A stretch of DNA of 64,000 bases from Schmidtea nova (Eukaryota), in assembly GCA_044892505.1 (NCBI GenBank), contig CM097883.1, positions 410,006,001 through 410,070,000 of the forward strand. The letters run 5' to 3'. Numbering within the stretch: the stretch's first letter is position 1; each line of letters begins with the position of its first letter. The notes under the pieces were generated by a model that did not search any database, was not told the DNA's origin, and saw only the letters and a list, made by a program, of their open reading frames with translations. This document shows, one piece after another, positions 4,632-57,277 of this stretch. A program made the translations under genes and the position numbers.

Positions 4632-6125
4632 ATGATGAATAGCTTGGTGACAAACAGTGACTGCCCGATTTGTTATGATTCCATGTCAAGCAATAACTTT
4701 ATCATTTTCTCACATTGCCTTCATCGGGTATGCAAAAGGTGTGCAGAAGAGATCATGTTCCAAAACTCGCCTAAATGCCATCTTGATAATCAAAAAATCA
4801 AAAAAATATTTCAATTTCAAATTGACCAAAACAGTGAAAGTGAATTTATAATTGAATCAAAATCTTCACGAGAATACCTGGATTCCATTTTATCCGGGGA
4901 GCCGCAGTCAATAATGGATAATGTTGATGATAATTGTCATTTGCTAGCATTATTTTTCAAAGAACATTTACTAAACAGAGGAAAATTTTTCAAAACAATA
5001 AATAGTCATTTGAACAGCTGGATAGAAAGGAATGAATTAATTGTAAAAGAACAAATATTGGACTTCAAAAACTGGATTGGATCTCAGTATTTAGATGAAC
5101 CTCATTTCTTAGATGTTCTAGAACTAATAGACACGAGGCATAAAAGAATCATTTACGAGAACTATCTTGACATACGTGAGCTTAAAATAATACCGAGATG
5201 TTATAAGAATTTGGAAAATTCACGTTATATGAGATTATACAATTTTTGTGATGTTATCCCGTCATTTCAATGTTTAACTGCTCCAGATATTACTAAAGAC
5301 GTCCAGCAAGAACTGATGAAGAACTTCATAAAAATTATTGAATCGAATTTGGAAGGATTCAAATTTGCATTTCAATATCTTACTTTCTTCGTATTGTCGT
5401 TCTCGAGGAATAATAGAGAATTGTATGAGAAAATACAAATAGATATTGATAAAGTAGATTTCCACAGATGTTTGATTTGCGTTGGAGAAATCAATAAATT
5501 GAAATTCGGAAAATTGTCAAATTGCGAACACAAAATATGCAGAGATTGCATTCACGATTTCAAGATTACCCATGCAAGTTGTCCATTTGATGATGATGAG
5601 TTTAGTGACTTGTTAATGATCAGTGACGATTCAATCAAAGGTAAAAAAATGAAAAATGAAACGGCTTTTCATTATTTATGTAGACATAAAAAAGATATTT
5701 ACGAAGAGTTAAACAAGGATATCCATGAAAAAAATAATGATTTCAGAGATAATTTTGAAAAAATATCTAAGACGAAATTGAAAATTTTCAAGGATAAATT
5801 GCATTCTTTGGCTTTTGCATTAGATTCAGATTCACACAATGATGAAAAGATTAGTAAATTACATAAAGAATTACAACAAATATTTCTGGAACTCCGTAAT
5901 TACGACTACTCTGGATATGTGCTGTCAGATATTAACTATGAATATCGCCGGAATTGTGTAAAAATGTTTATATTTCAATTCACTGATTCGGATTGGTGGG
6001 ATTATATTAATGTTAGCTGTGACGGAAATGATATGATAGAAAGTCTTAATGAAATGGTAGATTCTTTATTTCAGGATAAGATAAATCAAATTATGGTAGA
6101 CACTATTTTGAATAGTTTACCGTAA
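4632..6125 (+). CDS. Single-exon 497-aa double-RING finger protein (putative E3 ligase), paralog 1
   Basis: Intact ORF. Two C-x2-C...C-x-H-x2-C-x2-C...C-x2-D motifs (CPIC..CLHRVCKRC..CHLD and CLIC..CEHKICRDC..CPFD). Paralog at 27642. Confidence 0.85.
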   Translation: MMNSLVTNSDCPICYDSMSSNNFIIFSHCLHRVCKRCAEEIMFQNSPKCHLDNQKIKKIFQFQIDQNSESEFIIESKSSREYLDSILSGEPQSIMDNVDDNCHLLALFFKEHLLNRGKFFKTINSHLNSWIERNELIVKEQILDFKNWIGSQYLDEPHFLDVLELIDTRHKRIIYENYLDIRELKIIPRCYKNLENSRYMRLYNFCDVIPSFQCLTAPDITKDVQQELMKNFIKIIESNLEGFKFAFQYLTFFVLSFSRNNRELYEKIQIDIDKVDFHRCLICVGEINKLKFGKLSNCEHKICRDCIHDFKITHASCPFDDDEFSDLLMISDDSIKGKKMKNETAFHYLCRHKKDIYEELNKDIHEKNNDFRDNFEKISKTKLKIFKDKLHSLAFALDSDSHNDEKISKLHKELQQIFLELRNYDYSGYVLSDINYEYRRNCVKMFIFQFTDSDWWDYINVSCDGNDMIESLNEMVDSLFQDKINQIMVDTILNSLP

Positions 6126-21937: not shown

Positions 21938-22213
21938 CGTTGGGCAAGATTTGAATTTCGTGAAATTTTCCATGTAACGATAATGCAACAATTGAAGGGG
22001 ATATTTCGTAAGCGGCAAATAGTATTATGGGTCTGATTTGGCTTTTCATTTTATATTCAGTTTACATTTTTTGGGATGTAGTCCCATGGTTTTGGAGGAA
22101 AAAGCTTTTTATCCTGCTTTTTAGTAGTAAAGTCTCGTTGATACCTTACGAAGCTTTCACATATGCGAGAGTGAACGATGTTGTTATTTTTGTTTGTAAA
22201 TATTTACGTCGCT
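21938..22213 (-). repeat. Left arm of a ~280-bp inverted repeat (partner 27223-27502)
   Basis: The reverse complement aligns closely, e.g. CAACATCGTTCACTCTCGCATATGTGAAAGCTTCGTAAGGTATCAACGAG. Confidence 0.9.
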
Positions 22214-23632
22214 GATTAGATCAACTACAAAATAGAACGCAACCCAACTAATCAGTAAAAATAAAACCGGTTGGTTCCATAAGAACTGATTACTTTAATC
22301 ATGTGTTAGGATCAATGGGGAATTGTTGAAATTAAAACAAAAAATAAAGAGAATTTAGTTTTGAAATTATTTATCTGTCTGCTTATTTATTTATTTATCT
22401 GACTCCAAATTATGATTGATTATATATTTATAAATATAGCTATAATAGGTTGTGCTCACTATCGAATGATAGAATTAAAAAAAGAAACTCTTATATTTAA
22501 ATACTTTTTTTGAATAACAGTTTGAACACATAATTTTATCTACAGAAATAACTAAGACCGTGATCAATTGATCAATCCTTCAACGTTCCTCAAGCTATAC
22601 GATGCCTTCTAATGGCACGTCACTGTTGTTAATATATATTAAAGATTGAAGAAGAAGCAGATAATTTTGGGTATACTAAAGACGGAAGATTATCTTGTAT
22701 ACGCATTAATTATATGTTCCTTTGTAATAATTGATAAAATTTACCAAGTAGCAATTATGAACCAACAGACGGGATCTGATTGGTCGAGACAATCCGAGAA
22801 AAACTATAAAAGGAAATGTTAAAATCAGTCTAACAATGTCATTTTATCTTGTGTTGAGACAACATTTGTACTTTGAATCACTTGGAACAACATTTGGAAT
22901 CGAATAAAGGTATATATTATCGTTAGTTGTTTGTGATGATTAACCATTTTGAAACCCTCATGTTTTTCATTGATCTTGTTAAGAGCACGTCCCGACGGGC
23001 CATATCTGGCATCCCGACGCAACGCCCTTTGGGTGTTGGCCGGTGCGGCGTACAAGCACCAAACTATGACGGGGAAGCGAGTTGATTGTGAGCCCTCATC
23101 GCAATAACAGTAACAAACTAACTTATTAGATCATATAACCTCAGTCAACAAATCGAGCAGTAATTCTATCACATGCAGAGAAACTCGAACCCACATGCAG
23201 ACGAACCATTACCAAATTTTTGATTAAAGAGACACGAGAGATGAGCAAAATCGTGGACAACCGCACGCACTGATAAGGCATGCATCACAAGTTGGTAATC
23301 CAGTGATGATCATCGAATGAGGAGGTTGATTGTCATATTATGTCAAATGAATGAATGAGGCTGGTAGACTTTTTGGTAATTTTGAGCTAGGCTCCAGTTA
23401 TGACTGAATGTTTGATAGATGTGAATGTGGGCTAAATAATTCGACAAATCCGATAATGGTCTAATTTTTGACTCAATAAATACGAAAGCATAAAGTCTAA
23501 CATCTACTAACAACGAAGAGTCAGGGATGAAAGTGTGTGACTGGTGTATGGAAGGTGTGACATTGACTGAAGGATGATGATGAGAATGGGGCATGTACCA
23601 TCCAAACCCGAGGAGGAGCGAATTAAATCATT

Positions 23633-24267
23633 ATGTTCCATTTATATATAGATATGCTGAAGGAGAATCATTCAAACTTATCTAGCAAAAATCAAGGTAA
23701 CTGCCGCCGAAGGGTGGAAATGATAACGATGATGCCCAAACCACTCACACACGTTCCGGCGGACGTACAAATGACACTAGACACATGCGTCACTGGCGGC
23801 GCGAGTTTGACCAATTCGGTGAACATGATCAATGGAACCAAAATGACTTCCGAATCCAATGGGAAGGTGACCCGTCGTGGCCGTTACTTGATGCCAAAAC
23901 ATACATCCGGAACCGACCATGGTTCATCGAATTACTTTACGAAGGCGGTACTCCGAGGTGGCTACTCCACTTCCAAATTATCAAACCTCAACACCTACAT
24001 AAATTAGGGTATATCTTGATCAGCAAACCTCGCAATATACACACCGGGAACAAAATCCCGTATCCGAATTTACCATGGAAATTTCAACCCAAGTGAACTT
24101 CACGATCCCCTTGGACATGCACCGTCGTTTTCCAAGAGATCTTCATGTACGATGGCAAGCTGTGCTGGCAGCCCAACCTGACTTTCTATTACGACAATGG
24201 AGTGCGTTTCGAGGATAGCGAGTTCTCGCAGGATTGGTTTGACGAGGTGAACACAAGAGCAGACTAA
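23633..24267 (+). pseudogene. Unknown cassette, copy A+: W-x5-WP domain ORF (overlapping frames, one in-frame TGA)
   Basis: DFRIQWEGDPSWPL..RPWFIE..GGTPRWLLHFQ..LGYILISKP...*TSRSPWTCTVVFQEIFMYDGKLCWQPN aligns with the 30.8-31.2 kb translation. Confidence 0.65.
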
Positions 24268-24512
24268 TGGAATCTGCATTAATTGATATCAAACCTTCTA
24301 ATGTGTAGTAAAGTGAATAAATGTGTTACGTTTTGGCGTTGAGATTGTTGCAAATGTATGGAATGTAGAATGCAGGAATGACTGAATGAGGTTGTATGTA
24401 GAAGCCAATATCCTAATTGAACAACTATCAATGACTACGTAAATTTGTATAGAGGTGCGGCGTCGATTAAATCATTTTATCAGACTAAGTGTTTACCCGT
24501 TTTATCCTAGAT

Positions 24513-24827
24513 ATGTCAACAGTGAGAAACAGTAATAGGAGGGACAATCGCGATGACAATGAACAATTAAAAGGGCGAATTCGGTTGCTCAAAAGTGCAA
24601 TCCATCGCCAGGCAAATGAACTCGAAGGAATGAAAAGGACATGGTTTAGTCCAGACCGTACGAAAGTAATACTGCTAGCTGTCGAGGAGCAGTCAAAAGA
24701 ATTAGCAGCCACGAAGCTAGAGCTGGACAGATGCTTAAGAGCCGTCACTAGGGAGTTTATAGAGACCCATCTAAAGGAGCAAATACGTAACAGCACGTTT
24801 GAACGGTGGGTGCCATACCTCGCTTAA
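24513..24827 (+). CDS. Unknown cassette, copy A+: coiled-coil ORF (~104 aa)
   Basis: WFSPDRTK...ELAATKLELDRCLRAVTREFIETHLKEQIRNSTFERWV aligns with 31206-31623 (+) and about 55931-55560 (-). Confidence 0.6.
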   Translation: MSTVRNSNRRDNRDDNEQLKGRIRLLKSAIHRQANELEGMKRTWFSPDRTKVILLAVEEQSKELAATKLELDRCLRAVTREFIETHLKEQIRNSTFERWVPYLA

Positions 24828-25535
24828 ATATGGAAACACAGACGGAAACCATTCAAGTTACGAAAAAGGGTAATTGATTAGGCGCTAAGCAGAGATGGGA
24901 ACGGCGAACATTGGTAAATCAAATGGGTATATAGGTGGACTTATTGAGCGGCCTCTCAGAAAGACAACTGTAAATATCATTAATACAAACATTTTCAAAG
25001 AATGAATAAATGTATTTGAATTGCGTAAATCTGTTTTCTTGTAATTTCCGTTTTTCTCGCAAAGCAAATATTGGTTTGATTAAACCAAAAATACTTTTCT
25101 AGCAATGATTTACTGGATAATTTATCGTAATTTAAATTTCTGTTTAAACTAAAACTTTTACTAGCTTATATATAAATATTATACCATTAATTACTATATA
25201 TATATAAAAATTAGGCAATATTAATTACTATAAATAATAAATATCTATTTTTGGTAATTAAAAATTACTAAAAATAAACTTCTACATTATTTTATTATTA
25301 AATATGCTTTTATCAAAAATTAAGGCCTAAGGGTTTGTCTCTAATAAGCCTAGCCCCTAGAAGATTTTCGTCTCGAAAATAAAAACATTAGAACACTATA
25401 ATAAAAAATTAAAATTAAAAACCACAATATATACATAATAGTTTGGATATAGTCACAAACATACATAATCACAATGTGTTTAGCAGGATCTGCTTCTAAT
25501 TTTGTGCTTATCTCTGGCGATTTTAGCTCTTCTGG

Positions 25536-26640
25536 CTACTTCCTCAGATCGTTAAGGGCACTAGCGTAGATGTTAATAGAAAAGATATATTGAACCACGA
25601 TCACATCTAGAACGCGATGGTGGGAATAATTTGTAATAGCCATGTGGGCGACTGGTTTACAGTGAAATTTTTCTACAAGAGGAATCCATTGTCAATCAGG
25701 ATGTTCCCATCACATATTTCAATCTCCGTCCAAATCAACTGATAGATTGTTACGAATGAGATTATCCTTGCAAATGACGTTATCATTTTCTATGGTTAAT
25801 TCTTTCTTTATATTCACTTCCTGGATAATATTTGTTGGTGGCTGGAAGCTAAATTCTTCCAGGTCAGCAGGTGGTATCGAAGGTTTTACTTCCTTGGCTG
25901 TGACAGTAACTTCACTGTTTTTAACTTGTTCGGGATTGTTAGAAAGATCAACTTTACTAGTTTTTCTTTGACTGGGTGTTTTGCGAAGCTTAAACTTCTC
26001 TTTATCTCTCTTCTTAGCCTTGGCTGAAACTATGTTCTTCAGGATCTTTTAACTGTTGATTTTGGTGCTGCTGGTTTCCTTACTTTTTCAGTTTTAATCG
26101 CGCATGTTTCGTATGCGTCTTCTTCGGTTATAGGAGGTGGTATATAAGATCGCCGATAATCTGCGGATCCTTGGGCTTAGATATTTTAGATATGCTTGAC
26201 TCTGGGTGAATTTCTTCTTTTATTTTCGAGGATTTTAAAACAACGCTTCTGGTTGATACCTTTGATGACTGTTTTTGTTGATTGGTTCGTGGTTTTTCGT
26301 TGTCTTTCATGGCTTTATAGGCTGAGGTAAAAATATAATCTTCATTAGGTGGAGGGAAATGGTCAATATATTCATTTCAACATCAGCACGACAAATGTAG
26401 TGTATTCTGTCCCTTGGATGGACATGTTTTTCTCCCTTCCATCGGAGTTATTAATTTCAAGACTGCTGTTTAATTCCATATCTATAGGTCCTGTTGCTCC
26501 TGCAATGAATATTATGAATGGCTTCGTTATTGGATGTATCCATAAATTTTTCGTGTTCTGGCGCGACTTGAATTCTCGGAATAAGTCGGTTATTAAGATT
26601 ATTCCCTTGCTTCTTAGGATAATGATGATCATGTCTTGAA
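25536..26640 (-). pseudogene. Unknown cassette, copy A-: K/S/P-rich region followed by a W..WE....W.PL segment
   Basis: Frame 26040->25536 reads ...LDGD*NM*WEHPD*QWIPLVEKF..., with TGA at 25719, 25710 and 25692. Weakly alignable to DFRIQWEGDPSWPL. Further ORF fragments lie at 26128-26632. Confidence 0.45.
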
Positions 26641-27222
26641 ATTGTTTGGGCTATCTACTCGATACATTTTTTATTTGCAGTAATTTCAAGAGATATCACC
26701 CTTTTACTCACAATTTTCAAACTTTATCTTGTCAAATCCAACTTTGCATAATTACTAACAGATGCCTGACAAATTGATATATTTTCATTTCCTAATGCTT
26801 TGACAACCCCTTTTTGAGTAAAAGTTCTATCATTCTGAAAACATTTTCCTACTTTCAAAACCTTTACAGTTAAACTTTTGAGTTTGGATCCGGAATTTTT
26901 AAAAAAATCATAAAAGTTAATTGATCTATTTTCAGAATCTTCAAGTATTCTAAACCATTTATATGTTACAGGTTTTAAAAAGGTTTAAATTTTAGCGATT
27001 TTTATCGGAGGATCACCGCCATCTTGCATATTCTTTATAAAACTCAGGATTTTTTGAGTTATTGGTTTTCCGGTTTTGATTTTTTTTATTTTCTTCTCTT
27101 CAATTCCATAATTTACGGATTTAAATTATTCGTTTATTTATAATACTTAATATTTTATTTATAACCCTTAATATTTTATTTATAATACGTAATAAATCTG
27201 TATAAAAGAACAAAGGAGTCAG

Positions 27223-27502
27223 AGCGACGCAAATATTTACAAACAAAAATAACAACATCGTTCACTCTCGCATATGTGAAAGCTTCGTAAGGTATCAACG
27301 AGTAGAGATATTTCTACTAAAAAGCGGGCTAAAATGATTTTCCTCCAAAACCATGCAACTACATCCCAAAAAATGTAAACTGAATATAAAATCAAAAGCC
27401 AAATCAGACCCATAATTCTATATGCCGCTGAGGAAATATCCTCTACAATTGTTGGATCATCGTTACATGGAAAAATTCACGAAATCCAAATCTTGCCTAA
27501 CG
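27223..27502 (+). repeat. Right arm of the inverted repeat, directly upstream of RING paralog 2
   Basis: See 21938-22213. TATAAAAG lies at 27201-27208, just upstream of the arm. Confidence 0.9.
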
Positions 27503-27641
27503 AGAAAACTGTAATTAAATTTGTTGAACTATTTTTAAGTAAAAATATTTCCTCTATTAATGTAATTGAGAAATTTAAATTCGTAAAATTTTATTTTGTT
27601 TGAATTAATTTCCGAATATCATTATTTATAGAAAACAGATA

Positions 27642-29129
27642 ATGAATAGCTTGATGACAAACAGTGACTGCCCGATTTGTTATGATTCCATGTCAAGCAA
27701 TAACTTTATCATTTTCTCATATTGCCTTCATCGGGTATGCAAAAGGTGTGCAGAAGAGATTATGTTCCAAAAGCCTCCTAAATGCCATCTTGATAATCAA
27801 AAAATCAAAAAAATATTTCAATTTCGAATTGACCAAAATATTGAAAGTGAATTTATAATTGAATCAAGATCTTCACGAGAATACCTGGATTCTATTTTAT
27901 CCGGGGGGCCGCAGTCAATAGTCGATGCTATTGATGATAATTGCCATGTACTAGCAATACATTTCACAAATAGTTTACTAAAAACACAGAAATCCTTCAA
28001 AACAATAAAAAATCATTTGAACAGTTGGCTAAAAAGAAATGAATTTATTGAAAAAGAAGATATATTGGACTACATAAATTGGATTGAATCGGAGAATATT
28101 TATAATGATGATACAAGATATCCAGAAATAATAGACTTGGAGAATAAGGGATATATTTATGGGAAATATATTAACCAACATTCGTTTGAAATATTACCTA
28201 GATGTTATAAGAATTTGGAGACATCACATTTTATCAAATATTACGACTATTTTGTTGATATCCCGTCATTTCATTGTTTATTTGCTTTAGACATTTCTAA
28301 AGACATCCAGCAAGAACTGATGAAGAACTTCATGAAAATTATTGACTCTAATTTGGAAGGATTCAAATTTGCATTTCAATATCTTACTTTCTTCGTATTG
28401 TCGTTCTCGAGGAATAATAGAGAATTGTATGAGAAAATACAAATAGATATTGATAAAGTAGATTTCCACAGATGTTTGATTTGCGTTGGAGAAATCAATA
28501 AATTGAAATTCGGAAAATTGTCAAATTGCGAACATATAATATGTAGAGATTGCATTCACGATTTCAAGATTACCCATGCAAGTTGTCCATTTGATGATGA
28601 GGAGTTTAGTGATTTGATAATGATCAGTGATGATCCAATAAATGGCAAAGAAAGGAAACAGAAAACTGTTTTTGATTATTTGTGTAGACATGAAAAAGAT
28701 ATTTTAAAAGAGTTGGACAAGGACATCACTGAAAAAAATTTAGATTTCTATAACAATTTTGGAAATAAATTTAGGGGGAAATGTCTTATTTTCAAGGCTA
28801 AAATGCATTCTTTGCATGTAGCTTTAATATCATATTCACACAATGATGAAAAGATTAGTAAATTACATAAAGAATTACAACAAATATTTCTGGAACTCCG
28901 TAATTATGACTACTCTGGATATGTGCTGTCAGATATTAAATATCAATATCGTCTTAATTGTGCTGGAATCTTTTATTATGAATTTAGCAATTGTTCGCAT
29001 TGGGGGAATTATTCTGTTATCAGTTGTGACGGAAAGGAAATGATAGAAAAACTTAATAAAATCGAAAAATATTTATTTCTTGATGAGATAAATCTAGATA
29101 TGGTAGCACATTCTTTTGTAATCATTTAA
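27642..29129 (+). CDS. Single-exon 495-aa double-RING finger protein (putative E3 ligase), paralog 2
   Basis: Intact ORF with the same two C3HC3D-type RING motifs. About 100 bp of upstream sequence is shared with paralog 1. Confidence 0.85.
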   Translation: MNSLMTNSDCPICYDSMSSNNFIIFSYCLHRVCKRCAEEIMFQKPPKCHLDNQKIKKIFQFRIDQNIESEFIIESRSSREYLDSILSGGPQSIVDAIDDNCHVLAIHFTNSLLKTQKSFKTIKNHLNSWLKRNEFIEKEDILDYINWIESENIYNDDTRYPEIIDLENKGYIYGKYINQHSFEILPRCYKNLETSHFIKYYDYFVDIPSFHCLFALDISKDIQQELMKNFMKIIDSNLEGFKFAFQYLTFFVLSFSRNNRELYEKIQIDIDKVDFHRCLICVGEINKLKFGKLSNCEHIICRDCIHDFKITHASCPFDDEEFSDLIMISDDPINGKERKQKTVFDYLCRHEKDILKELDKDITEKNLDFYNNFGNKFRGKCLIFKAKMHSLHVALISYSHNDEKISKLHKELQQIFLELRNYDYSGYVLSDIKYQYRLNCAGIFYYEFSNCSHWGNYSVISCDGKEMIEKLNKIEKYLFLDEINLDMVAHSFVII

Positions 29130-30626
29130 CTCGTGAACCCATCGCAATTTTTAAAAGTTTTATAAGAAATGAATAATGATTTTTAGTTGTTAAAAAAGCA
29201 TTATTTATCCGTTGGAAATGGCATCACCAATGCAATTATTAAAGGCTTTATTTCATTTTATTGTCCATAGTTTATTCACAGAAGTTCAGCGATTCTTAAT
29301 TTGATATAGTTGACATTTTAATTTTTACGTGATTTGCTTTGATTTTATTAATAAACATACTTTATTATTATCTAGTTTGATCATAAAATATGGAGAAATT
29401 AATTATCAATCAACATGCTAGACTAGTGTCCATAAAGGATGCAAAATTATAACTAGTAGTTCAATTCTGATAAAATACGCAGAAAAACCTTGTAACAAGA
29501 ATCTAATCTATTTTTTAAGTTTATAAAATATTTCGACAGAATTTTACTTGGATTTAAAGACCGTTCGTTAATGCAATTAGAAATACACAATCTCAGTTTA
29601 TCTTTTGCATATTTATTCATAAAATATAAATAACAATTTAATAAACTGGAATAAGCATACCGAATGTAATAAGGATTATTTTAAATTCGAAAATTTTCAC
29701 TTAATAAAACTTTGTAGCAAAGGCTTATTTTGTTATTTATTAATTAATGTTGCTACAATAAAACCACCTTTTATGTTGCAAGTATTGTTATTACTAGTAG
29801 TAATGTCTGTCCAATAGTCTCGCGATCTAATGGACGATAAGTTGCCTCTCGCGCCGACTCATTTGGGAGGTGGTCGATGTGGCGTACCAGCGCTAAATAC
29901 AGGGAGCGGTTGTACGTGGGGCATATAATAAGTTTGTTTGAATCGTTTAGGGTTGAATAATGTGATTCCGCATACATAGCATAGCTGCAATAAACAACGC
30001 ATTCAAGTGAACGTAGGGCGTGCGAAATGGTAGCATTTGATATTCCATGTGTTCGTAAAAATCATTCACAACCCAGAAGTAGAATTCCAAGGGAATAGAT
30101 CACATAATCAGGGCGTTTGAATTTATTATTATTGAACACCACATGCATAGCCAATCACATACCTAGGACATTTGCATTTGCATCAACACTATTCGAGACG
30201 AGTCGTATTCAATTTAGAGTTTTTACAAGCATCGAACATATGGTTCGAGTTAGCAATAGATACAGGGTGTTCGGATAATGCGATCCCATATGAGGAGGGT
30301 ATTTGGTAATAGTGAGAATGAGTGTGGCCGAGTGTTGCTTTTTATTAGTATGATTGCGAGCAAGAGTGCTATTGAATAGCGACAACGAATGTTTGAAATT
30401 TCCGTAATTAGAATTACTCCCAATAATTGCAAATCAATTATTTACCTAGCCAAAACTTAAGGTAAACAAAGAGTTAATTGAGTTACACAAGTTATATATA
30501 TTGTAGAGATTGAGTTACTCGGCCAATTTTTGAGAAAAATTTTTAAAGTGACATTAGTTCATTTCATACAGTACAAATTTAATCCTATTCCCCAGAAATA
30601 TTGGTAAGGGAAAATGGTCGTTTTAT

Positions 30627-31170
30627 TTGATTGTTACCCAAAAATTTAGATTCCAGATCATAATCCAGGACGACAGTAACCGAAGGAGGATGTTCGCTGG
30701 GGATGTCAAATATTTTCGAAGCGGTAAAATAAACAAACCCGCGTATCGGCCATCTGAAGTCAATGAAGAGATAAATCGTCAGCTCCATTTGGTTTATGGG
30801 AGGAAGAAGACTTCGAGATACGGTGGGAAGGAGTGCCCCATTGGCCACTCTCAGAGGACTTACCCCATACCAGCCATATCAGATGGTTCATAGAAATCCG
30901 AGATGAAAATGGCACACCTCGATGGCTCATTCATTTCCAAGCCATCGAGACTCGAAAGTTGAACCAACTGGGGTACATACTACTAAACAAACCCGCCATA
31001 TTCTGACTGGCGAGGAAATCAGATACATCAATCTGTCTTTTACATTTTAACAATAATGGAAAACGAAATCCAGATGGACCGCAAACATCCGGGTGCAGGA
31101 AATATTCCTGTATAAGGAGCGCCTAAGTTGGAAACCCAACCCAGCCTTATATCGCGAGGACGGTATTTAA
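30627..31170 (+). pseudogene. Unknown cassette, copy B: W-x5-WP domain ORF (frameshifted)
   Basis: EEDFEIRWEGVPHWPL..IRWFIE..ENGTPRWLIHFQ..LGYILLNKP / RHILTGEEIRYINL...WTANIRVQEIFLYKERLSWKPN. Confidence 0.65.
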
Positions 31171-31205
31171 TTTAAAGAGACTAACAAATGTAAGAAATGT
31201 AAGAA

Positions 31206-31623
31206 ATGAAAACTACCAAGAATAGGGAAGAAAGAGAATCCAAGGAGACTATAAATGCGCTCCGACGGAAAGTTGTTTATCAGGCGAGAGTTATCGAGGA
31301 GACGCGACGTAAGTGGTTCACCCCAGCGTCGATGAAGACCACGATGATGTGGAATGAACGCCTCAAAAAAAGCTTTAAATGAACAAACAATAGAATTATC
31401 AGCGACCCATATCGAGTTGAATAAGTGTCTCCGTACCGTGTCGGGAGATTTTGTATCACAACATTTGAGGAGTCAAATTAGGGCCGCCTTATTCGAGAAA
31501 TGGGTGATGAGACAGGCAATAGAAGTAGAGACGCAGACCAAAGTCAAATCGGCAAATCAGTCAGTAATTCCGAAGGTCACAATCTCCGAAAACCCAACCA
31601 TCCCAATTATAAGCAGAAGATGA
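31206..31623 (+). pseudogene. Unknown cassette, copy B: coiled-coil ORF (one frameshift near 31360)
   Basis: MKTTKNREE...RRKWFTPASMK / ALNEQTIELSATHIELNKCLRTVSGDFVSQHLRSQIRAALFEKWV. Confidence 0.65.
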
Positions 31624-32359
31624 AAAATCGAAACCGATTAGGCTTAAAACGAAGTGGAGAGCGTCGAGCATTTGCAGAACGGTTAAACATTCAAGTGGAT
31701 TTATTGAGCAGACTGTCGGAGAAACAGCTGATGAATTTGATTGATACAAATATGTTTTGTGGATAAATAAATCGCGTTTCGTATATGATTTAAATTGAAT
31801 ATTTTTGCAATGATTGTTTGACGATTTTCTGCATTAAGTAAGAATTTTAGTAAAGATTTTAAATAAAGGGACCAGGTGTACGGCAAGGAAAGGTCTTCTA
31901 TCGACTGAACGAAGCCGTATGGGTAAGAGGGGAATTGTAACTCCCTAGGTTGCTCACCTACCTTCTTGACATACAACGGTTAGTGCAGTTCCAACGTGAG
32001 GTACGATTAGGGGTATTTCATGGGCATTATCGCGAGATTTACGATTTTATGTGGGAGATGTTTCCCTAATATAAACATCATTAAAACTCATTTTTTACAC
32101 CTATACCCAACAGTATTGTAATATTATTATTAATGAGTATGTTTTTAGTTATATTAATATTATTTTTGTTATTTTTGTAAGGGTTAGGCCCTTGGCCTTA
32201 AGCATAAAAGAATTAAATATCACTAAAAATAGAATAATTACAAAAATAGAAATAGATAATTACACTAATCATAATTGAATTACTTAAAATTAAAATAACC
32301 GTGATTAATTACTAAAAATAGAATTGGTCTATCTTTAGTAATTATAAATTATGATAACC

Positions 32360-32386
<27 letters not shown>

Positions 32387-32390
<4 letters not shown>

Positions 32391-34017
32391 GTAGACCTCT
32401 TGTATCTGCAGTTGACACTCCTTCCACAACACTTTCTAAAGTTCTTTCAGAAATTCTAAAAACACTTTTGCCTTTGGTTCCTTCTCATCTTAAAAACACA
32501 ACTGAATTCGTCTCCGAAATTACAAATACGTCTCTTCCGTTAAACTCAGGACAACAGTACTTCTGGGGATCTCTTGACGTTTCCAATCTTTACGGATCTA
32601 TTCCTCTTCACGGAGAGAATAACATTTTCGATATCGCAGCTTCTTTCTTTGAAACTCATAAAGCCAATACTGACCTCGCAGACTTAACTAAACAAGACTT
32701 TATAGAACTTCTAAAATTAGCAATAAATTCAGATACTGTCATAATTAAAGAAAAACCATTCAAACAAATTCATGGATTAGCCATGGGTAATAACCTTTCT
32801 CCCATCTTAGCCATCTTCTACATGAACTTTATAGAATCTAAGATCATATCTTTTTTTGGGGACAAAATACTTTTCTGGAAACGATACATCGACGACATCT
32901 TCATAGTCTCCACAATCCCTCTCAATCAAATCCTATCACACGCAAATTCTACTAACACCAACATACAATTTACTTTTGAAACACCGAACACAGAAGGTAA
33001 AATACCGTTTTTAGATACCATGGTAAGTTTCACAAAAGGCCAAGATACACTAAATGCAAACACCGAGCTATATTCTAAAGGTTTACATAGCGGTCATATC
33101 CTCCCATGGAAAAGCCACGTTCCACTTCAACGCAAAATCGCATTACTAATAGGAGAAAGAAAAAGAGCCATAAGAAACTGTTCAGACGCAAACAAAATAC
33201 AAGAAACATTAGAAAACTTCAAAATACGATTCCTCCAAAATGGATACCCTGAAGACTTTGTAAAGAAACACTTCCTTAACGAACCATACCACAATAAACG
33301 CAACAATAGAAAACGCCAGAAACACAATAACAATAACAAACACACAACATATCTAAGATTACCTTTCCTAAATGACACTACAGCCAACAAAATCACCAAC
33401 ATTTTTAATCAAACAGATTTGCCTATCCACATCCGTCCAACGTTCATAACCTCCGCACCGTTAAAATCACAACTCCGAAAGCCACCAATTTCCAACATCT
33501 CCAAACATAAATGTCTTTGTCGTTCCACAACCCGATGCTTTTGCTTTTCCAAAAATATAGTATATAAACTTTCTTGTCAAAAATGTGACGCTACTTACAT
33601 AGGAGAAACACAGAACTTTTCGCACCCGACTTAATGAACATACTAAAATCAAAACCAGTAATTATTACGAACACTGGGAAAAAGTACATAAAACAACTCC
33701 ATCTATAGAAGAAACAAAATGCCAGATCCTACAAGAGGGATTCAAAAATTCATTACAAAGATTAGCTTCCGAGACTTTTTTCATAAAAAAATACAAACCG
33801 TCCATCAACATTCAATTCGCACAAAAAAATTAAAATAAAATAAATTTTTTCATCCAATAAAATCATTATAAAATATTAAAAAAATAATTAAGGCTACTAT
33901 TTAGGATTAAGTAAATATAACGATAGAAATACACACTTGATAAAGGCTGTGCCGAAATATTGTGTTATTGTTTATAAAAAAAAAAATTTTGATCTATAGT
34001 CATTATGAGAATTATTG

Positions 34018-35535: not shown

Positions 35536-35805
35536 ATGGATCATTTTTACTGCAACGCAAAGATTTCGGGAAGAGCTAGTAGGGGAGAGGAGCCCAAGTC
35601 AAACCGAACGATCAGTATACCTCGGGAGATCGTTTATGACAACCACCTCGTCATAACAATGCCCCTCAAACAGATTCCCACTGAGCTGGCCAAGGATATC
35701 TTCATGGAACATCAAAAAGTGTTTTTACAAGACGGTGAAACATCGAGTTTCAGTCTGCATCGTGTGGTATTGGAGCGCAGAGTGGCCTATTGACGTGGAT
35801 ATTTT
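35536..35805 (+). pseudogene. Unknown cassette, copy C: F-box-like motif and start of the W-x5-WP domain
   Basis: IVYDNHLVITMPLKQIPTELAKDIF..VFLQDGETSSFSL / IVWYWSAEWPIDVDI aligns to the 56.3-56.9 kb minus strand. Confidence 0.65.
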
Positions 35806-36578: not shown

Positions 36579-38525
36579 CTAGCTTTAATACCCGGCGTCG
36601 CTCGGGGGAGGGAGGAGGATTAAATTAATGAAAGCACAAAATTGTTTAAACACTTTTATTTTCAAGTACTTTGAATCAACAGGTTGTTTAATTTTAACAA
36701 TTGGTCTTTAGCTTACGCATAAGGTAAAAAAGTAAAATTTAAATTTAACAAAATAAAAAATTTAAGAAAAAATTATTGGAGTGCCATCTGGTATACAAAA
36801 TTTTTTGTTAACCCAGCTTTTGCAAACACAAATTTTTAGGATTCCCTACACGTGAGCATCCCACATAAAGTTGTCCATGGGTAAAACACGGATTTTCTAA
36901 ATTTATCCCAGCTACTTTCAATGATTGCCCTGGGATTTATTAATCGACATAGCGAATGCCAATCTGACGTGGAATTGAATCCTTTTAAAATTAAATGGTA
37001 AATTATTTGGAATGAGTGGGATCCGCGGAATGAAAACGTCTTCTCATTTTGCACAGCCTGTTAAAATTGTTGCTTCAATAATATTATTATACATATTTTT
37101 GACTGACATTCTTGTACCATTGCAAAGTTTTGGAGGATCTAGGTTACGAAGTAACATAATTGGAGATCCTATTTTCAAATTTAAGTTATGAGGAGGAAAA
37201 CCAGAAGGATTTAACGAATTAAGTTTCAGCTACACGTTTTATATAACATAACATGTGTTATTGGCATGAAAGAACTGCTGTAACTCTTCCACTATGTTAT
37301 TTCTGACGTTTGGAAGCATCGAACATCTTAGGTTTGCTTCTGTCGCGGATTCGCCCATAAAATAAATTTGCAGAAATTGTGGTTCTACATCAGCTGGTGG
37401 CAATAGGGACCCAATTCTATAGAAAACTTGCCCTTGCACTTTAAAAAATGGCATGAATCCTTCTTCGCTTACTACTCTAGAAGCACCAAAGGATGTCATT
37501 TGAAAACAGGAATTATATTTCCGTATGTTATCAAGAAAATGCCTAGATCCCGCTGTATCGCCTGTTATCAAAGATTTAAGGGGCTCTATATGAGGTTCTA
37601 ATACAGGTAATTTAATTTTACCATTAGAACAACAAAGTCCAGGGGGCTCGCCCTTTCATTTTAGCGCTCCACAATGTCTACAAACAACATCCATTAAACC
37701 GATTTGAAGCGAAAGAATATTCTGATAATCGATGTTGGCAACATTTTTGAAATCTTATAACCTATTTCGAAAGGCAGAAGCTCTTCTTTGCTCAACAAAT
37801 CTAGCTTCTCTTGCTTCGGCTGATCTACTAGCTGCAGCTCTAAACCTTAACAATGCTAATCTAGTTTCTCTTTCTTCCTCCGTTTCATTTTCTCTCGTTA
37901 ATCCAGCTCTATTTCTTAAAGATGTAAGTCTAGCTTCTCTCGCTTCGCCCGTTTCATTTTCTATCGGTAATCGAGCTCTATTTCTTTGAGATGCAATTCT
38001 GGCTTCTCTTTCTTCTGCAGTTTCTCGATCTCTCACAGCTGCAACTCTAATTCTATGAGATTCTGCTCTAGTTTCTCTTCCAATCGTTGCCCTTTTTATA
38101 TGGAGCATTTCTTAATTTTTTTTTCTTTAGTACTAAAATTAATAATGCATTCAAAAAAAATGCACAAAAAACAGAGACTTTTCAATAAGTGTACCTACCT
38201 TTTTTACATTTAAACAACTTATACAGCTTAGATATAATATAATTTTACGTAAGATATAATGTAGATATAATGTAATTTTACGTGTAACATATATATCGGG
38301 TCCAAGACAAAAACTAAAACAGGAATTTGTTATTAATTAAATTCATTAATTTTTATCTAAAAGTAACTTACGCCTTCAAATTTTGTTAATAATCAACAAA
38401 ATGTGTAATATAATTAACAAATAATTAATATTTTGTACAATAATTAACTTAATTGTTTAATAGTCAATATTATTGAAATTATTTTGTCATAAATATACAT
38501 ACAATTTTCAGCTTTATATATAAGA
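36579..38525 (-). mobile_element. Internally deleted Helitron
   Basis: 5' A|TCTTATATATA; 3' CCCGAGCGACGCCGGG hairpin then CTAG|T. RepHel N-terminal fragment FLDNIRKYNSCFQMTSFGA..FKVQGQVFYRIGSLLP and decayed PIF1 C-terminal motifs ([32 protein letters not shown]). E/R/A-rich repeat ORF at 37755-38108. Confidence 0.93.
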
Positions 38526-39479
38526 TTAATCAATATCAATATTGCATTTGTTTTGGATTTATTTTTATAATAGCAATAATAATATGAAATGACAAAAACC
38601 AGTCGGAAAGAATTTCAGTTAAGGGAATGTATGAATTTTATTAGATATCTTCTGTTATGTTATAAAAAGCTTGCAATCTGTATTTACAATGGTTTATTAT
38701 GAACCATACAAATCTTCTCAAATTATTAACAGCTATAATTTTAAATAGTTGAAGTGATTCAAACAACCTTCCTATAATGCAGTGTGAAAGTGGCGAAAGC
38801 TCTCCTATAATGCAGTACTCTTAAATTGTGATTTACATATAACGCGGAACGAATTAATCGTTTTAGGAAGGTTAACTGTATTATAAACGTGTCAATCAAA
38901 AAGTTGAATATTTGATTGGTTTCCCTGCTATAAAACATTTGAGAAAATAATTGAAAATTTAAATGATTGCTTCCGATAAGAAATTCATAATAGTTACGAT
39001 TTATGGTGTATTTTTTGAAAAATTAACTAACTTTTGTAAACTAACTCAATTCAGTTGGATTTTGATCATTTCTCACGTAGAAATAATTATGCAAAATTTC
39101 ATTCAAATAATGCTGATTAAGAGACTTATTTATGACAAAAAATGACAAAAATGCAGAACTTCAAATTATTTTCAATATTTAATTTTCAATTATTGAACTC
39201 TTTCCAACATTATTTCGAATTGAAAACGATATATTGCATACAATTTTTGCAAAGATATTCCATCTTAGTTGACAATAGTGTAATTCAATGAAATGAAATC
39301 GAATGAATTACTTTCAAATAATGTTTTTTCCAGAAAACTATCATATTGTCTTATTCGAAAACCTAATATTTTACGAAAATTATCTGAAGTGAAATTTAAA
39401 TTTTGTCACCAATGTTTAGAAACTGCCAATTTCAATCGATGCTGCAAAAAATATTTAAGAATCATACCAAATCATACCT

Positions 39480-39770
39480 TGTACTCGAAAAACCTAGATT
39501 CCGTCATTGGAAAATTCAAAGACAAGAATAAAGGATTCAAGTATGATGAGTGGGTGTTTCTTAGGTCAAAGTGTTACAGTCTTTTAAATGATGAAGAGTG
39601 CATTAAGGCTAAAGGTATAACATTGAAGGATACTAAACTGAATCATCAGTCGTACCTGAATTGTTACAATAATAATTCAATAGTTTCTGTTGATCAGTCG
39701 AGAATTGCTAGTAAGAATCATCAACTCTTTACTAATAAATCTTCTAAGATTGCCTTAACTAATCTTGACT
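39480..39770 (+). mobile_element. Maverick/Polinton protein-primed DNA polB C-terminal relic
   Basis: VIGKFKD..EWVFLRSKCYS..KAKGI..IASKNHQLFT..KIAL matches the pPolB C-terminus. Confidence 0.85.
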
Positions 39771-40251
39771 TTGGGTTGGAAAAAATGTTAGTCTGGCTTA
39801 TGGACATTATAAGGGAATTGATGTGGTTATGGGGGTGCGTGAAGATGCTGCTGAATCTGATGAACAATTTGACCAAAGATGAGAAGATTTATTTAAAGTT
39901 TTATTTTTTAAAATACTTTGTTTTTTTCTAGTTAATAAGTTCTTGAATTCTAACCAAGGTTTTTTCATGTAAAATTGATCGGAGAAGACCAATTTTTCAT
40001 GTTTTTACTTTTTGACCCTTTTTTGTTGGCCATTGAATTTTCAGTAGATTGATATAAAAATTATTGAAATCTGAGCATTTTTTAAAATTTTGGAAAAAAT
40101 GTTGAAAAAATTAATTTATTTTATATTTTTAAAAAAAATGAAAAAAAAATATGAATAAAAATCATGAAAAAATAAAAAATATTAAATTTCAGTGTTATGT
40201 CATTAATTACGTAATAAATAATCGATTATATTATTTTCTAAAGTTTTTCTT

Positions 40252-43850: not shown

Positions 43851-46247
43851 CACTAGATTTACGGAACACGTCAAATTGACGGGTTCCGTAAATCTAGTGT
43901 AAATAACTCAGAAACCACAAATTTTTGTATTAGAAATATATATTGATTATTAAGTATTTACTAACACGTGTATTTATCTGTATTTGTTTTCTTGTAAGGT
44001 CCTCTAATTTCGAGTATCTGTATGTAGTATACCTATTTTTCCGAAAACCCGTCAAATTGACGGGTTCATTTTACCAGCAGACATTTGTTCTAAAAGTACT
44101 GTTTTCTTCGCGTTGCTTTCTCCAACTATTTTATGAGTGAAGATAGTAACAGTTTAAGCGTATCAGGACAGGATCTTGCATGCCCATTTACGCAGTTGAT
44201 TGTTATAAATAGTAATTAGAATAAGTAGTAATTGTGAAAGCTTGTTTCTTTGTCTTCACTTCATTTCAATTTTATTTCATCAACGATTATTTGATTTCTA
44301 AAGGTAATTTGAAAATATAAGGATGAAAACGGTTTATGTCATATTTATTTTTATTTTGACTATAGCAATTATGAGAAAATCTCGGAAAGAAGTTAAAATG
44401 CTGCACAAAATAAACAGCATAAATAAAAGTTTATCTGACACCGAATCAGATTCTGATGCAGTTGATGCAGTTTTATCGGAAATCCGTGATGAAATTGGAG
44501 ATGAAAGCATGGAAATTGATCTTTCCGACTCTGAAGATGAAAATTACCATAACATGCGTCGCTGCAGAAAAGCATTCGTATAAATTCGGCCTCTGAAAAC
44601 GAAAGTGACATGGAGGTTGCTGATACACAGGATGATGCTGAATCCAATTCGAACGAAAATTCTATTGATGGAGAATGGCAAATACTAAAGGAAGGTGGAG
44701 GTAATGGCAAACCGCCAGCTCATACCATATTCAAAGATGTACCAGGTGCAACTGCGTATGCTAAAAGAAATAGTATGATTGGAAATGTGCGAAGCGCATT
44801 TCAACTGATCGTTGATGAAAGTATGATAAAACATATCAAAAGTTGTACTGAAGCAGAGGCATGTAGAATTTTTGGAAAGAAATGGACAATTACGAAGTCA
44901 GGATTGTATGCTTTTCTGTCAATTCTGTATGCCCGAGGAGCATATGAGGCAAAATCGTTGAAGGCATCATATTTATGGTTGAAGAAATGGGGCCCCAAAT
45001 TCTTTTCCGAAACAATTCCCAGGGACAAATTTATGGAAATTTTGCGATTCATACGATTTGACAACAAATATGAGAGGAGTCAACGTTTGAAGGCAGATAT
45101 ATTTGCACTGATTCCCAAAATATGGAACAAATTTATTGAAAATATTCAGAATTTCTATAAACCTGATGCGCATATAACAATTGATGAACAATTGTTTCCA
45201 ACAAAGACCAGGTGCCGATTCACTCAATATATGCCTCAAAAACCAGATAAATTTGGAATCAAATTTTGGTTAGCATAGGATGTTAGAAACAAATATCTTA
45301 TAAATGGATTCCCATACTTAGGCAAAGATGATACACGAGCAGCAAACATACCTCTGGGTGAATTCGTAGTTCTCAAATTTATTGATCCATATTTGGGCTG
45401 CGGACGAAATGTAACGACGGACAATTTTTTTACGAGTCTTTCACTTGCAAAAAATTACTTGCGAAAAACACAATTCTCGTTGGTACTATACGTGCAAATA
45501 AAAGAGAATTACCAACAACCGCAAAATCTAAGAAAAATAATATGCCGACATTTTCTACGCTACTTTATAAATTGGAAAGCTGTGTTCTCACAGTTTACAA
45601 GAGCAAACCAAAGAAGAAGGTACTTTTAGTCAGTACAAAACATACGTCTGTAAAAATTAAAGAAAATTCTAAACGTGTCCCGGAGACAATTGCGTTTTAT
45701 AATCAAACCAAATATAAAGTGGACGTCATTGACCAAATGGCACGAAAGTATAGTGTGAAAGCCGGGTCCCGTAGATGGCCTCTTCAAGTCTTCTACAACA
45801 TATTAGATTTAGCTGCGATCAACGCTTGGATATTGTATAAGTAGACCGCCGGAGTAAAAATAACAAGAAAAAACTTTGTTTTTCAATTAGCTGAAGAACT
45901 TGCCAGTGGCAATGAAGATACATCCAACAGTCATTCCAATCTGCAGTCACACACACAAAAATCAACTATACGAAAGACCTGCCAAATTATATTTTGCACA
46001 AAGAACAAGTCGAATAATATTTGTGTTATTTGTAATAAATATATTTGTGGGAAATGCACATCAAAAATTGCATATACATGTATAAATTGTAATGAATAAA
46101 TATTAATATATGTATATAAATATTAGTTTTATTTAAAAAATAAAAGGAATCAAGAATATTTACCAAAAATTTCAATTTTACTGAAACCCGTCAAAATGAC
46201 GGGTTTCAGTAAAATTAGGTATACAAATTATCCCCGTAAATCTAGTG
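43851..46247 (+). mobile_element. Full-length disabled piggyBac element (2397 bp)
   Basis: TTAA|CACTAGATTTACGG ... CCGTAAATCTAGTG|TTAA; internal CGTCAAA(T/A)TGACGGG palindromes. Transposase motifs IDEQLF, KPDKFGIKFW, TTDNFFTS and VDVIDQM with stops (45276, 45842) and frameshifts. Confidence 0.97.
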
Positions 46248-55310: not shown

Positions 55311-55499
55311 GTTGACAATAAAACGTTAACGAATTTTATTAAAATATAGTCGTTATTTTCAAATTCACTTGAGTTATCACAATTTGTATAGAATGCTTAC
55401 TTTATCAGTCAGATGTTAAATTAATATTTAATTGCCTAAGATTTACAAATATAAACAGACAATTGATCAGGGATTCACGGTAAAAGAAATGTAACATTC

Positions 55500-55931
55500 T
55501 GGCATCACACTGTTTCGCACTTTGAATACTTTTCTCGTTTTTTCTTTAACCCACAGTGTTTCTGTGTAATCATTCGTTTTCGTTCGTTTGTCTTTAGCCT
55601 CGTCACATTGGACCTATACGCTTCCTGCAATCCTGGGACGAGAACAGACCATGAATATAAAGTTATTTGGTGGATTTGATTTCGCTAGTCATCGGTTATG
55701 AACTTTAAGTTTATTGCCCTTTGGCAGTATAGGATTTCCACTTTCAAGACTTCGTTCTCTAGTTCTAAGTCACGAAGGGCTTGTTGTACGCACGAGAGTT
55801 TATCAGTCGTCTTTCATTGCCTGTGGAGTGAAATAGCAGCTTTATAATTCTATTATTCGTCTCTTGAGATGTCTTACTAACTATTTTGCTGTTACGTTCT
55901 CTGTTGCTTGACAACTCTTATTTGTTGTCAT
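55500..55931 (-). pseudogene. Unknown cassette, copy D: decayed coiled-coil ORF
   Basis: MTTNK...CYFTPQAMK / VQQALRDLELENEVLKVEILYCQRAIT / FITDD*RNQIHQ aligns with 31206 and 24513. Confidence 0.55.
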
Positions 55932-56336
55932 TCTGAATATTAATTAGATTTTTTTAGAGCCTGATTTGACCAAAACTATTCTCCAACCATTTGAAATTTG
56001 TAACACCCTTTCCTTATGCCAACGTTCTTTGGAGGTATGCGCACGTTACTCTTTAATTTTTTAACCAAACTACCCCGATTTACTAATTAACTAAATCTCC
56101 CTTATCATCATCAAACCCGATTACTACTTCTATTTAGTTTACCTTTTCCCTTTATACTGATTCGCTGGCTATACCAATTTTGGTGTACAGTTAGTTTTCA
56201 TGATGTATTTTCCTATTGCTCAAAAATTTCAAACTAATTACTATAAAACAAATAAAAGAATACAGTAGCAAAATTAAGTTAGGTTGAATACTTTATATTA
56301 TACTAAATATCCATAAAATATGTTCACCACACATAG

Positions 56337-56891
56337 TTACAAGGTTAGTGCACAATTGCCAGCTTCTGATAGTGAACTCACCGGGAGGGACTGAAGGGAG
56401 AATCGGATCATCTTGATAAACTCACATGAGGGAATAATTCCCGTGTATCTCAAAAATGTTTGACCTTGAATATCGCTGGGTGTTTCAACGAAATATTTTG
56501 GACAGTCCAGTAGGTATTCAAAATCGACATCAATGGGCCACGCCTGGCTTACATGCCAAATTACCTCATCCGGACTGTTTATGAACATACTAAATGTAGA
56601 AACCTTTCCCTTCATTGCATAGACCGCATTATTATTTCAAGTCGACTCCTTTCTTTCAACTCCTACTAGGGTATCATTTTTAAAAAAAATGTTCTAGAAA
56701 ATGAAAATAATGTAAATGATTTCTCTGGCTATATCTGTTGGAATCTGCTTGATTGGTATCGCCAGGACCAGATAGTTATCATATACTATCTGTCCTGATT
56801 CCTTTACCGCATTATTATTTCAAGTCGACTCCTTTCCTTCAACTCTTCCTAGGGTATCATTTTTAAAATAAAACGTTCTAGAAAATGAAAA
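56337..56891 (-). pseudogene. Unknown cassette, copy D: F-box-like + W-x5-WP ORF, interrupted by an ~85-bp local duplication
   Basis: IVYDNYLVLAIPIKQIPTDIAREII / VYAMKGKVSTFSM..VIWHVSQAWPIDVDF..KYFVE. Direct repeats at ~56623-56707 and ~56806-56891. Confidence 0.65.
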
Positions 56892-57277
56892 TTACGTAGG
56901 TAATTTAAATTGTACAATTTTAACAATGTTTTAACTCATATTTAAATTAGTTGGTGATACCCAAAACGGGAATTACTTGTCCTTTCATGAAATTTGACAG
57001 GAAATGGCGGTTTCCTGTTTAAAGTTATTTCTCCCCCGTGGTACCTCACATTTACAGCGCTTTTTACGCGGTTCAATTTTTTTCTTATTTCTTTGATTTA
57101 CGAGCAAGTATCCAGGGATTGGCAATGTATTTCTAGACTAACTAGCATTAGTTACACTACAAACGTTGCTTGCAATGAGTAACTACTCGTTAAACAACAG
57201 TTATATTGTTACCATAGAATTAGATCCTGTTATGGCAACAACACCGACAAGGGCTGTTATAGCCCAAGTCATGCTAT

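Follow-up and report, generated by a model that had tools for sequence, protein, structure and literature searches.

The 64-kb window analysed here, that is, the whole stretch from position 410,006,001 to 410,070,000 of contig CM097883.1 of Schmidtea nova, is AT-rich animal DNA dense with repeats, and it contains several decayed copies of a cassette of two open reading frames (ORFs), ORF1 and ORF2. Our analysis indicates, on grounds of both identity and layout, that this cassette is very probably the inner part of the ~3.2-kb long terminal repeat (LTR) of giant Burro-type Ty3/Gypsy elements. Both ORFs have evolved under purifying selection. The copies in the window are likely decayed solo LTRs, left behind by recombination between LTRs. 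A preliminary description of this DNA had proposed an old and abundant accessory module of an undescribed mobile element or endogenous virus; the module did prove old, abundant and formerly selected, whereas its parent appears to be a Gypsy element of the known Burro type. Although the Burro class is already known, complete selected genes inside its LTR are apparently undescribed: the literature searched, including PMC11410931, gave no account of genes inside Burro LTRs, with original figures and supplements lying outside that scope and an earlier mention being possible.

Results

ORF1 and ORF2 are conserved genes of several old lineages

ORF1 encodes a W-rich protein of 160-210 aa and ORF2 a protein of ~200 aa with a coiled coil and an Arg-rich helix. 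Profiles built from natural open frames (39 for ORF1, 51 for ORF2) scored 230 and 107 bits on the window, whereas none of 21 control windows of 64 kb, reversed or shuffled, scored above 0 bits. The plus-strand succession of a W-rich and a coiled-coil ORF reported earlier thus consists of real relics (copy 1 in Table 1), and the resemblance between copies is significant against such controls. A second pair, noted at 30.6-31.6 kb (copy 3), was recovered in identical order, with tblastn E values against copy 1 of 6e-19 for ORF1 and 5e-13 for ORF2. Of the more remote relatives that had been suggested, those at 35.5-35.8 and 55.5-56.9 kb belong to a distant lineage, E, while the candidate at 61.2-61.6 kb fell away, since 61339-61565 is a 227-bp dispersed repeat without a profile match. 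In a search of the same genome (G000) with ORF1, all 150 scored places, out of 4230 first-look candidates, reached E<=5e-22, these candidate and match counts not being copy numbers; the corresponding search for lineage E returned 1352 candidates, 150 of which were scored.

The ORF pair spans at least three old lineages (A, to which copy 1 belongs, B and C) and probably a fourth (E). Profile-profile comparison of ORF1 from lineages A and B gave 96% (E 3e-9) at an identity of 14-27% between A and B or C, and ORF2 can be aligned across lineages A, B and C. Lineage E matched B at 77% (E 2e-5) and A at only 19.5% (E 0.001), and an ORF2 homologue scoring at least 9 bits lies downstream in 11 of 15 lineage-E loci.

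Selection was assessed as the median pairwise ratio of nonsynonymous to synonymous divergence (dN/dS) over pairs, not independent of one another, within a set dS range. For ORF1 this ratio was 0.12 in lineage B (89 pairs), 0.35 in A (16 pairs) and 0.35 in E (15 pairs); for ORF2 it was 0.09 in B (129 pairs), 0.13 in C (63 pairs) and 0.26 in A (12 pairs). Past purifying selection, as had been surmised from the protein-level similarity, is therefore seen in both ORFs (0.09-0.35). For the two shifted sense frames the ratio was 1.1-2.4; for the antisense frame with the same third positions it was 0.19-0.53, always higher than in the sense frame, and for an internal RING ORF of the element it was 0.20. 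Codon periodicity along the lineage-B LTR is strong in ORF1 and ORF2 and absent between them, two other LTR segments with a raised ratio having merely 4-5% divergence. The divergent Cys-rich minus-strand frame that had been described upstream of ORF1 did not hold up as a gene: its phase ratio against seven relatives is 1.0-1.2, compared with 2.3-7.0 in lineage-B ORF1 and ORF2. Its Cys strings are present, yet the one at 30.2 kb is cut by two stops and the loose pattern occurs in four of 20 leaders; its identity as a degraded RING gene was rejected.

Searches for homologues were empty, which does not by itself show that the two families are novel. A word search with ORF1 yielded no homologue among 31 candidates, and its profile retrieved one match from 1.84 billion proteins, a tandem-repeat protein judged spurious (E 4e-4). 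None of 4552 entries from the ORF2 profile search was homologous, none of 203 pattern matches in metagenome contigs was upheld, Pfam had no match at cut-off for either protein, and the Atlas gave no usable match for ORF1 and merely rows under 0.9 for ORF2. ORF1 was modelled as a small alpha-beta domain (predicted local distance difference test, pLDDT, 68; predicted template modelling score, pTM, 0.59) with no fold match in PDB, BFVD or a wide VIA search (best Z 2.8). The ORF2 model has long helices, a disordered linker and an Arg-rich followed by a Leu-rich helix (pTM 0.26), and no fold match in PDB; its last helix has, by eye, conserved hydrophobic spacing and no clear class-1 export pattern.

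The cassette forms the inner part of an LTR

Unit boundaries were found by anchoring 42 copies on ORF1, the flanks being unrelated beyond the shared unit. The 3' limit is sharp at CCARCA, and the 5' start, TGTTGG, lies ~500 bp before a splice-donor-like motif, AAAG/GTA. Complete solo units measure 3.1-4.7 kb and are flanked by an exact 4-bp duplication in six of eight true solos (a ninth row of the table of solos, the 3' LTR of an irregular full element, is excluded), compared with 0 of 72 mismatched pairs, and in five of six complete lineage-A relatives. Termini, size, 4-bp duplications and the set of promoter motifs described below are features of an LTR.

The parent element was recognised through lineage B, a diverged homologous ORF pair found beside one copy. 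Among the best 150 lineage-B matches, 12 same-strand pairs, counted by eye, lie 24-27 kb apart. Eight paired loci were fetched, comprising five of these 12, two of five pairs at 44 kb and one lineage-C locus. All eight have LTRs of 3.2-3.3 kb, 99.6-100% identical and with TG..CA termini, that flank a polyprotein and contain ORF1 and ORF2 in both copies; the outer 4-bp flanks match, with one locus irregular, and seven of the eight have a tRNA-Pro primer site, the polyprotein and a polypurine tract in regular order. Extending the alignments outward, as had been advised, thus led to termini, duplications and gag-pol in the paired loci of lineages B and C, and the cassette itself contains no reverse transcriptase (RT) or integrase, as stated at the outset. 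The paired elements are ~30 kb long plus nested insertions (one measured 29.9 kb), and an apparent 47-kb subfamily was dropped, both loci fetched containing a nested Gypsy or Maverick. One copy has an open frame of 5,666 aa with a RING ORF on its 5' side and a TRAF/MATH ORF on its 3' side; the polyprotein consists, in order, of a CCHC knuckle, fusion glycoprotein, protease, RT, RNase H, integrase and ankyrin repeats; env (PF24664 at 2102-2442, E 8e-71) follows gag in the same frame and precedes the protease (at 2629). The assignment to Burro was made by architecture, through comparison with the published description of Burro/GYPSM1.

For lineage A, 139 LTR ends of its type have the primer site behind them (control 0), the majority being lineage C. 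Among six older primer-site loci fetched, all had the full site, three the 5' RING ORF and one the polyprotein. In a tree of the structured 3' block, many of whose inner branches are weak, primer-site-linked LTR ends nest among lineage-A solo ends, which include the nearest relative of copy 1.

The primer site is complementary to tRNA-Pro(TGG) of the same genome. Between it and the LTR stand 6 conserved nt, TAAATT, at L134:7954-7977 as at all primer-site loci, a spacing of 0-3 nt being usual; sites that seemed to abut the LTR directly were chance flanks. The gene for this tRNA, the Burro primer, forms a tandem array of 308-bp period at C1:459.6 Mb, and its pattern has 1106 matches genome-wide. 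The irregular full element mentioned above (L138-L141, C1:514.4 Mb) has a second LTR preceded by the 300-bp upstream flank of the first in place of the polypurine tract, which may reflect conversion, recombination or an assembly error. Elsewhere (C1:51.04-51.07 Mb), Maverick genes are flanked by two inverted lineage-A LTR relics, 98% identical, at a distance of 21 kb from each other. Another Gypsy family, very young, ~12 kb long and with a 2,992-aa open frame in dozens of copies, was considered as parent and rejected for its different LTRs; by eye, one copy (L031-L032) has an env-like stretch between gag and protease, the Burro layout on a smaller scale. An LTR pair at C1:346.2 Mb proved to be a 21-kb tandem duplication, and supposed long terminal inverted repeats were a neighbouring repeat.

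Promoter motifs and structured RNA

A promoter-like motif set lies ~1.1 kb 5' of ORF1, with CCAAT and TATA boxes each in 16 of 20 lineage-A copies and the same motifs at LTR positions 350/379 in lineage B and 370/399 in lineage C. Of 33 copies compared over the 260 bp that precede the 3' block, one has CCAAT and six have TATA. Judged by sequence, the sole conserved CCAAT/TATA set therefore appears to stand upstream of both ORFs.

The leader contains a double hairpin in which, over 24 copies, 88% of cells are paired and 11 of 25 pairs have a compensatory change; one of 500 shuffles scored as high and slid controls were 29-41% paired, the structure having been derived from the same 24 sequences and their relatedness inflating the shuffle control. 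In the 3' block, 15 of 28 predicted pairs have compensatory changes. The frequent G-U pairs point to a structured RNA on the sense strand. Rfam, run on eight loci, gave one chance row, and three runs of unknown kind had no joint at the predicted splice sites and were uninformative.

Copies in the window and their surroundings

Copy 1 (Table 1) is 78-86% identical in DNA to a 3852-bp LTR of the same genome with both termini (C3:26.42 Mb), in aligned blocks at 22735-23467, 23512-24861 and 24860-25043, and the alignment to its nearest relative ends at 22735 and 25043. Its ORF1 is broken by a frame change near 23777 and an in-frame stop at 24094-96, and its ORF2 by a frame change near 24816. An acceptor-like TAG stands directly 5' of the ORF1 ATG and another precedes that of ORF2; AATAAA follows at 24316 and 25005. 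Copy 3 retains ORF1 (30773-31182), ORF2 (31209-31760) and its 3' end, with terminal CCCAACA.

Table 1. Positions in the window of the LTR relics, their parts and the surrounding Gypsy element.
Feature	Position	Strand	Remarks
Copy 1, probable Burro-type solo-LTR relic, lineage A	22735..25043	+	both true ends gone
CCAAT box (22776), TATA box (22804), initiator-like TCAGT	22776..22830	+	aligned across lineage-A copies
Splice-donor-like AAAG/GTA, predicted end of short leader exon	22906..22915	+	in 19 of 20 lineage-A leaders, a set itself anchored on this motif
GC-rich double hairpin of the leader	22980..23058	+	conserved; copy 1 lacks 16 nt of hairpin 1
Cys-rich frame	23190..23300	-	leader sequence without coding signal
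ORF1 relic, W-rich orphan	23654..24267	+	profile match; ~205 aa in unbroken relatives
ORF2 relic: coiled coil, linker, Arg-rich helix, Leu-rich helix	24513..24973	+	profile match
Copy 3, second lineage-A LTR relic	29817..32111	+	hairpin block, ORF1, ORF2, structured 3' block
Lineage-E ORF1 fragment	35536..35790	+	tblastx to 56-kb copy, E 1e-10
Lineage-E relic: ORF1 homologue, then ORF2 homologue	55417..56892	-	profile and tblastx
Unrelated Gypsy family D: relic of ORF behind pol and start of 3' LTR	25243..26638	-	relatives at 70-77% DNA identity
Family-D polypurine tract	~25347-25370	-	(TA)n near 25200 in the same family-D stretch
Far end of the same family-D 3' LTR	22304..22703	-	collinear with family-D relatives

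The minus-strand frame at 26640->25536, which had been taken for a second, convergent member of the cassette family, scored with neither the ORF1 nor the ORF2 profile. It matches (E 2e-16 and 5e-14) a 690-aa ORF behind pol in a full element of the unrelated Gypsy family D with 967-bp LTRs (C1:504.08 Mb). Family-D relatives match 26632-25243 (loci L192 and L194 from 26361 on) and then 22703-22304, in order, and we infer from this collinearity that copy 1 is nested between the two halves of a family-D 3' LTR. What looked like two copies meeting tail-to-tail is therefore best read as a nested insertion with deletions at both junctions, the convergent ORF being foreign. A KilA-N identity for this ORF, suggested by a weak row only, was rejected, the stretch being part of the family-D ORF. 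ORFs of 550-690 aa behind pol occur in two other Gypsy families (L100:3635-5704 and L031:1076-2728, both on the minus strand; compare 25536-26638, also minus, in the window); they are interrelated (E 7e-11) and have no Pfam match. By eye, their middle part recalls a DEDD-type exonuclease and may be one; rotifer elements have been reported with such an exonuclease in the text of PMC5408684.

Other features of the window were recorded alongside. A 281-bp inverted pair, 90% identical (21938-22213 and 27223-27502), brackets the whole nested block. An EAF (ELL-associated factor) gene is present twice, at 13.2-14.5 and 54.1-55.4 kb, the two being 83% identical and having duplicated RING genes nearby; this is read as an old local duplication. 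A Penelope-type RT fragment stands at (TA)n (32348-33634), a piggyBac-like fragment at 44553-46099 and, both by eye, a Helitron-like fragment at 37239-38111 and a Maverick polymerase-like fragment at 39284-39931. Intronless double-RING genes of ~500 aa, present in many copies, include 4623-6125 and 27609-29129 of the window and form arrays at C1:52.57-52.81 Mb and C2:54.1-54.3 Mb. The tandem unit of these arrays, 5.4 kb long, consists of the RING gene and a Burro LTR relic in head-to-head orientation, the RING ATG lying ~130 bp from ORF1; a circular-virus concatemer was rejected as its identity. These genes are possibly an expanding E3-ligase family that exploits LTR sequence.

Discussion

From the position of the promoter motifs, transcription would start ~400 nt into the LTR, which would place both ORFs in R/U5 and make the minus-strand strong-stop DNA ~2.8 kb long. 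A short leader exon is predicted to be spliced to the acceptor-like sites right before the ATG of ORF1 or ORF2, and the short messages would terminate at AATAAA within the LTR. We consider it likely that the two selected genes formed an early regulatory unit in which ORF2 would bind the element's own leader RNA. Carrying a poly(A) signal as well as a donor in its 5' LTR, the element would require a means of making and exporting its full-length RNA. Tat, Rev and lambda N use an Arg-rich protein with a structured RNA for read-through or export. Speculatively, ORF2 might oligomerise through its coiled coil and set its Arg-rich helix on the leader hairpins, allowing read-through or the export of unspliced genomic RNA, and so act as an early-to-late switch by analogy with Tat and Rev in complex retroviruses; we put forward such a role for ORF2 on leader RNA only tentatively. 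ORF1 may be a cofactor or may act on the host, a partner in the same unit being the simplest option. That a complete two-gene module of this kind, an Arg-rich protein with its cognate hairpin, stands downstream of the Burro LTR promoter, making every solo LTR a self-sufficient cassette that acts in trans, seems unlikely when taken as a whole.

Alternatively, ORF1 and ORF2 might be directed at the host from any LTR, solos included, either against PIWI/piRNA silencing or as cell-fate effectors. Burro carries many host-directed domains according to the text of PMC6431247, and the text of PMC8532177 describes it as targeted by PIWI and released from repression when smedwi-2 is knocked down; the fast divergence of ORF1 between lineages, together with selection within them, also resembles that of arms-race genes. 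However, no known effector was matched by sequence or fold, and a host-directed role leaves the conserved leader hairpins upstream of the genes unexplained. We hold this role to be somewhat unlikely.

A different geometry of the same element would place the ORFs in a long U3 under an internal promoter, with genomic RNA starting near the 3' block and a short R-U5. This would agree with LTR genes such as MMTV (mouse mammary tumour virus) sag and HIV (human immunodeficiency virus) nef, which lie in U3, and would avoid a 2.8-kb strong-stop DNA far longer than usual. The 3' block is compact and strongly covarying at the LTR end, and a TATA-like word occurs at LTR positions 2853 (lineage B) and 2943 (lineage C). 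Set against this is the near absence of CCAAT, and the scarcity of TATA, before the 3' block relative to the upstream set, and we regard the U3 arrangement as improbable. To a similar degree we doubt that ORF2 activates the LTR promoter by binding DNA through its basic helix, in the manner of foamy-virus Tas. Its dimer-type coiled coil and basic helix would suit such a function, and faint basic leucine zipper (bZIP) rows appeared in Pfam (one of 29 members each), but these rows do not rise above chance, the order of the parts is opposite to that of bZIP, with the coiled coil first, then a disordered linker and the basic helix on the C-terminal side, and in the conserved cis element the covariation is that of an RNA, many pairs being G-U on the sense strand. 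Finally, a cassette standing alone, whether from an endogenous virus or some unknown element, or a DNA transposon of Ginger type that has TG termini and duplicates 4 bp, would account for the mostly solitary lineage-A copies with such duplications and for the lack of homologues found outside this genome, but it can be practically discounted, as it is refuted for lineages A-C by the primer-site-linked copies and contradicted by paired LTRs around gag-env-pol with primer site and polypurine tract, by inverted ends of merely ~6 imperfect bp and by the lack of a transposase inside any unit.

Several points weigh against our preferred interpretation, a regulatory gene pair in the LTR of a Burro-type element. 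No two-LTR lineage-A element was found, and by eye none of the best 150 matches shows the 24-27 kb spacing, in keeping with an old lineage that survives as solos; LTR ends of lineage E were not found either. The target duplication of copy 1 is unreadable because both termini are lost. BIR, BCL2-like, SUMO-like and dUTPase-like motifs, which are named for Burro, had no Pfam match at E<=0.01 in the one copy searched; the published calls were made partly by HHpred. Lineages B and C do not plainly share the donor motif of lineage A, and the predicted poly(A) sites are weakly supported, AATAAA being frequent in such AT-rich DNA (present in 31 of 33 random-looking stretches of 260 bp). The strict Arg-rich pattern occurs in 15 of 24 ORF2 sequences, and the Arg-rich helix could be a mere nuclear localisation signal.

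The usual view of LTRs is that they are non-coding, and of solo LTRs that they serve as promoters at most. In the present case, an LTR has two genes with dN/dS near 0.1, as tight as the internal RING ORF, across old lineages. The formation of solo LTRs would then scatter promoter-plus-gene units and not delete coding capacity, each leftover solo being a small self-contained gene unit. ORF1 and ORF2, which add two orphan protein families, are prone to mis-annotation as lineage-specific host genes, and their location raises the question of how a strong-stop DNA of such length gets made. The regulator-hairpin pair is testable, in the largest known LTR elements and in a regeneration model with working RNA interference. 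If the proposal is true, a switch in the style of complex retroviruses arose independently in an invertebrate Gypsy lineage, and thousands of solo-LTR expression cassettes per genome would be able to act in trans.

Comparison with known systems

Burro/GYPSM1 of dugesiid planarians is, in the text of its description, a giant Gypsy of ~30 kb with one polyprotein (PMC6431247). The elements studied here resemble it in length, in the single giant polyprotein, in the in-frame env between gag and protease, in ankyrin repeats and a TRAF/MATH accessory ORF, and in very high copy number; they differ in the size of the polyprotein (5,666 aa, compared with 4,873-5,140 aa in that text), in the TRAF ORF standing after the polyprotein, and in the two selected LTR genes, which are absent from the text and figure legend there (PMC6431247). 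LTR retrotransposons of plants and rotifers have conserved extra ORFs whose function is not known, some of them nuclear, and these have been proposed, in the text of both reports, to act like retroviral accessory proteins (PMC7264820, PMC5408684); they are described there as internal, either preceding gag or following pol ahead of the 3' LTR, and are lost upon solo LTR formation. Unlike them, ORF1 and ORF2 are part of the LTR and follow its promoter motifs.

With Rev, Rex, Tat and lambda N, ORF2 shares Arg-rich sequence, a capacity for oligomerisation predicted from its coiled coil, a Leu-rich helix and an accompanying structured RNA within the element, a likeness seen in sequence and model; it differs in having neither detectable homology nor clear export-signal spacing. 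MMTV sag, HIV nef and foamy-virus bet are likewise protein-coding sequences inside an LTR, and no sequence similarity to them was found. Each of these is one ORF, placed in U3 ahead of the main promoter, whereas the Burro-type LTR carries two whole genes that apparently stand downstream of its promoter.

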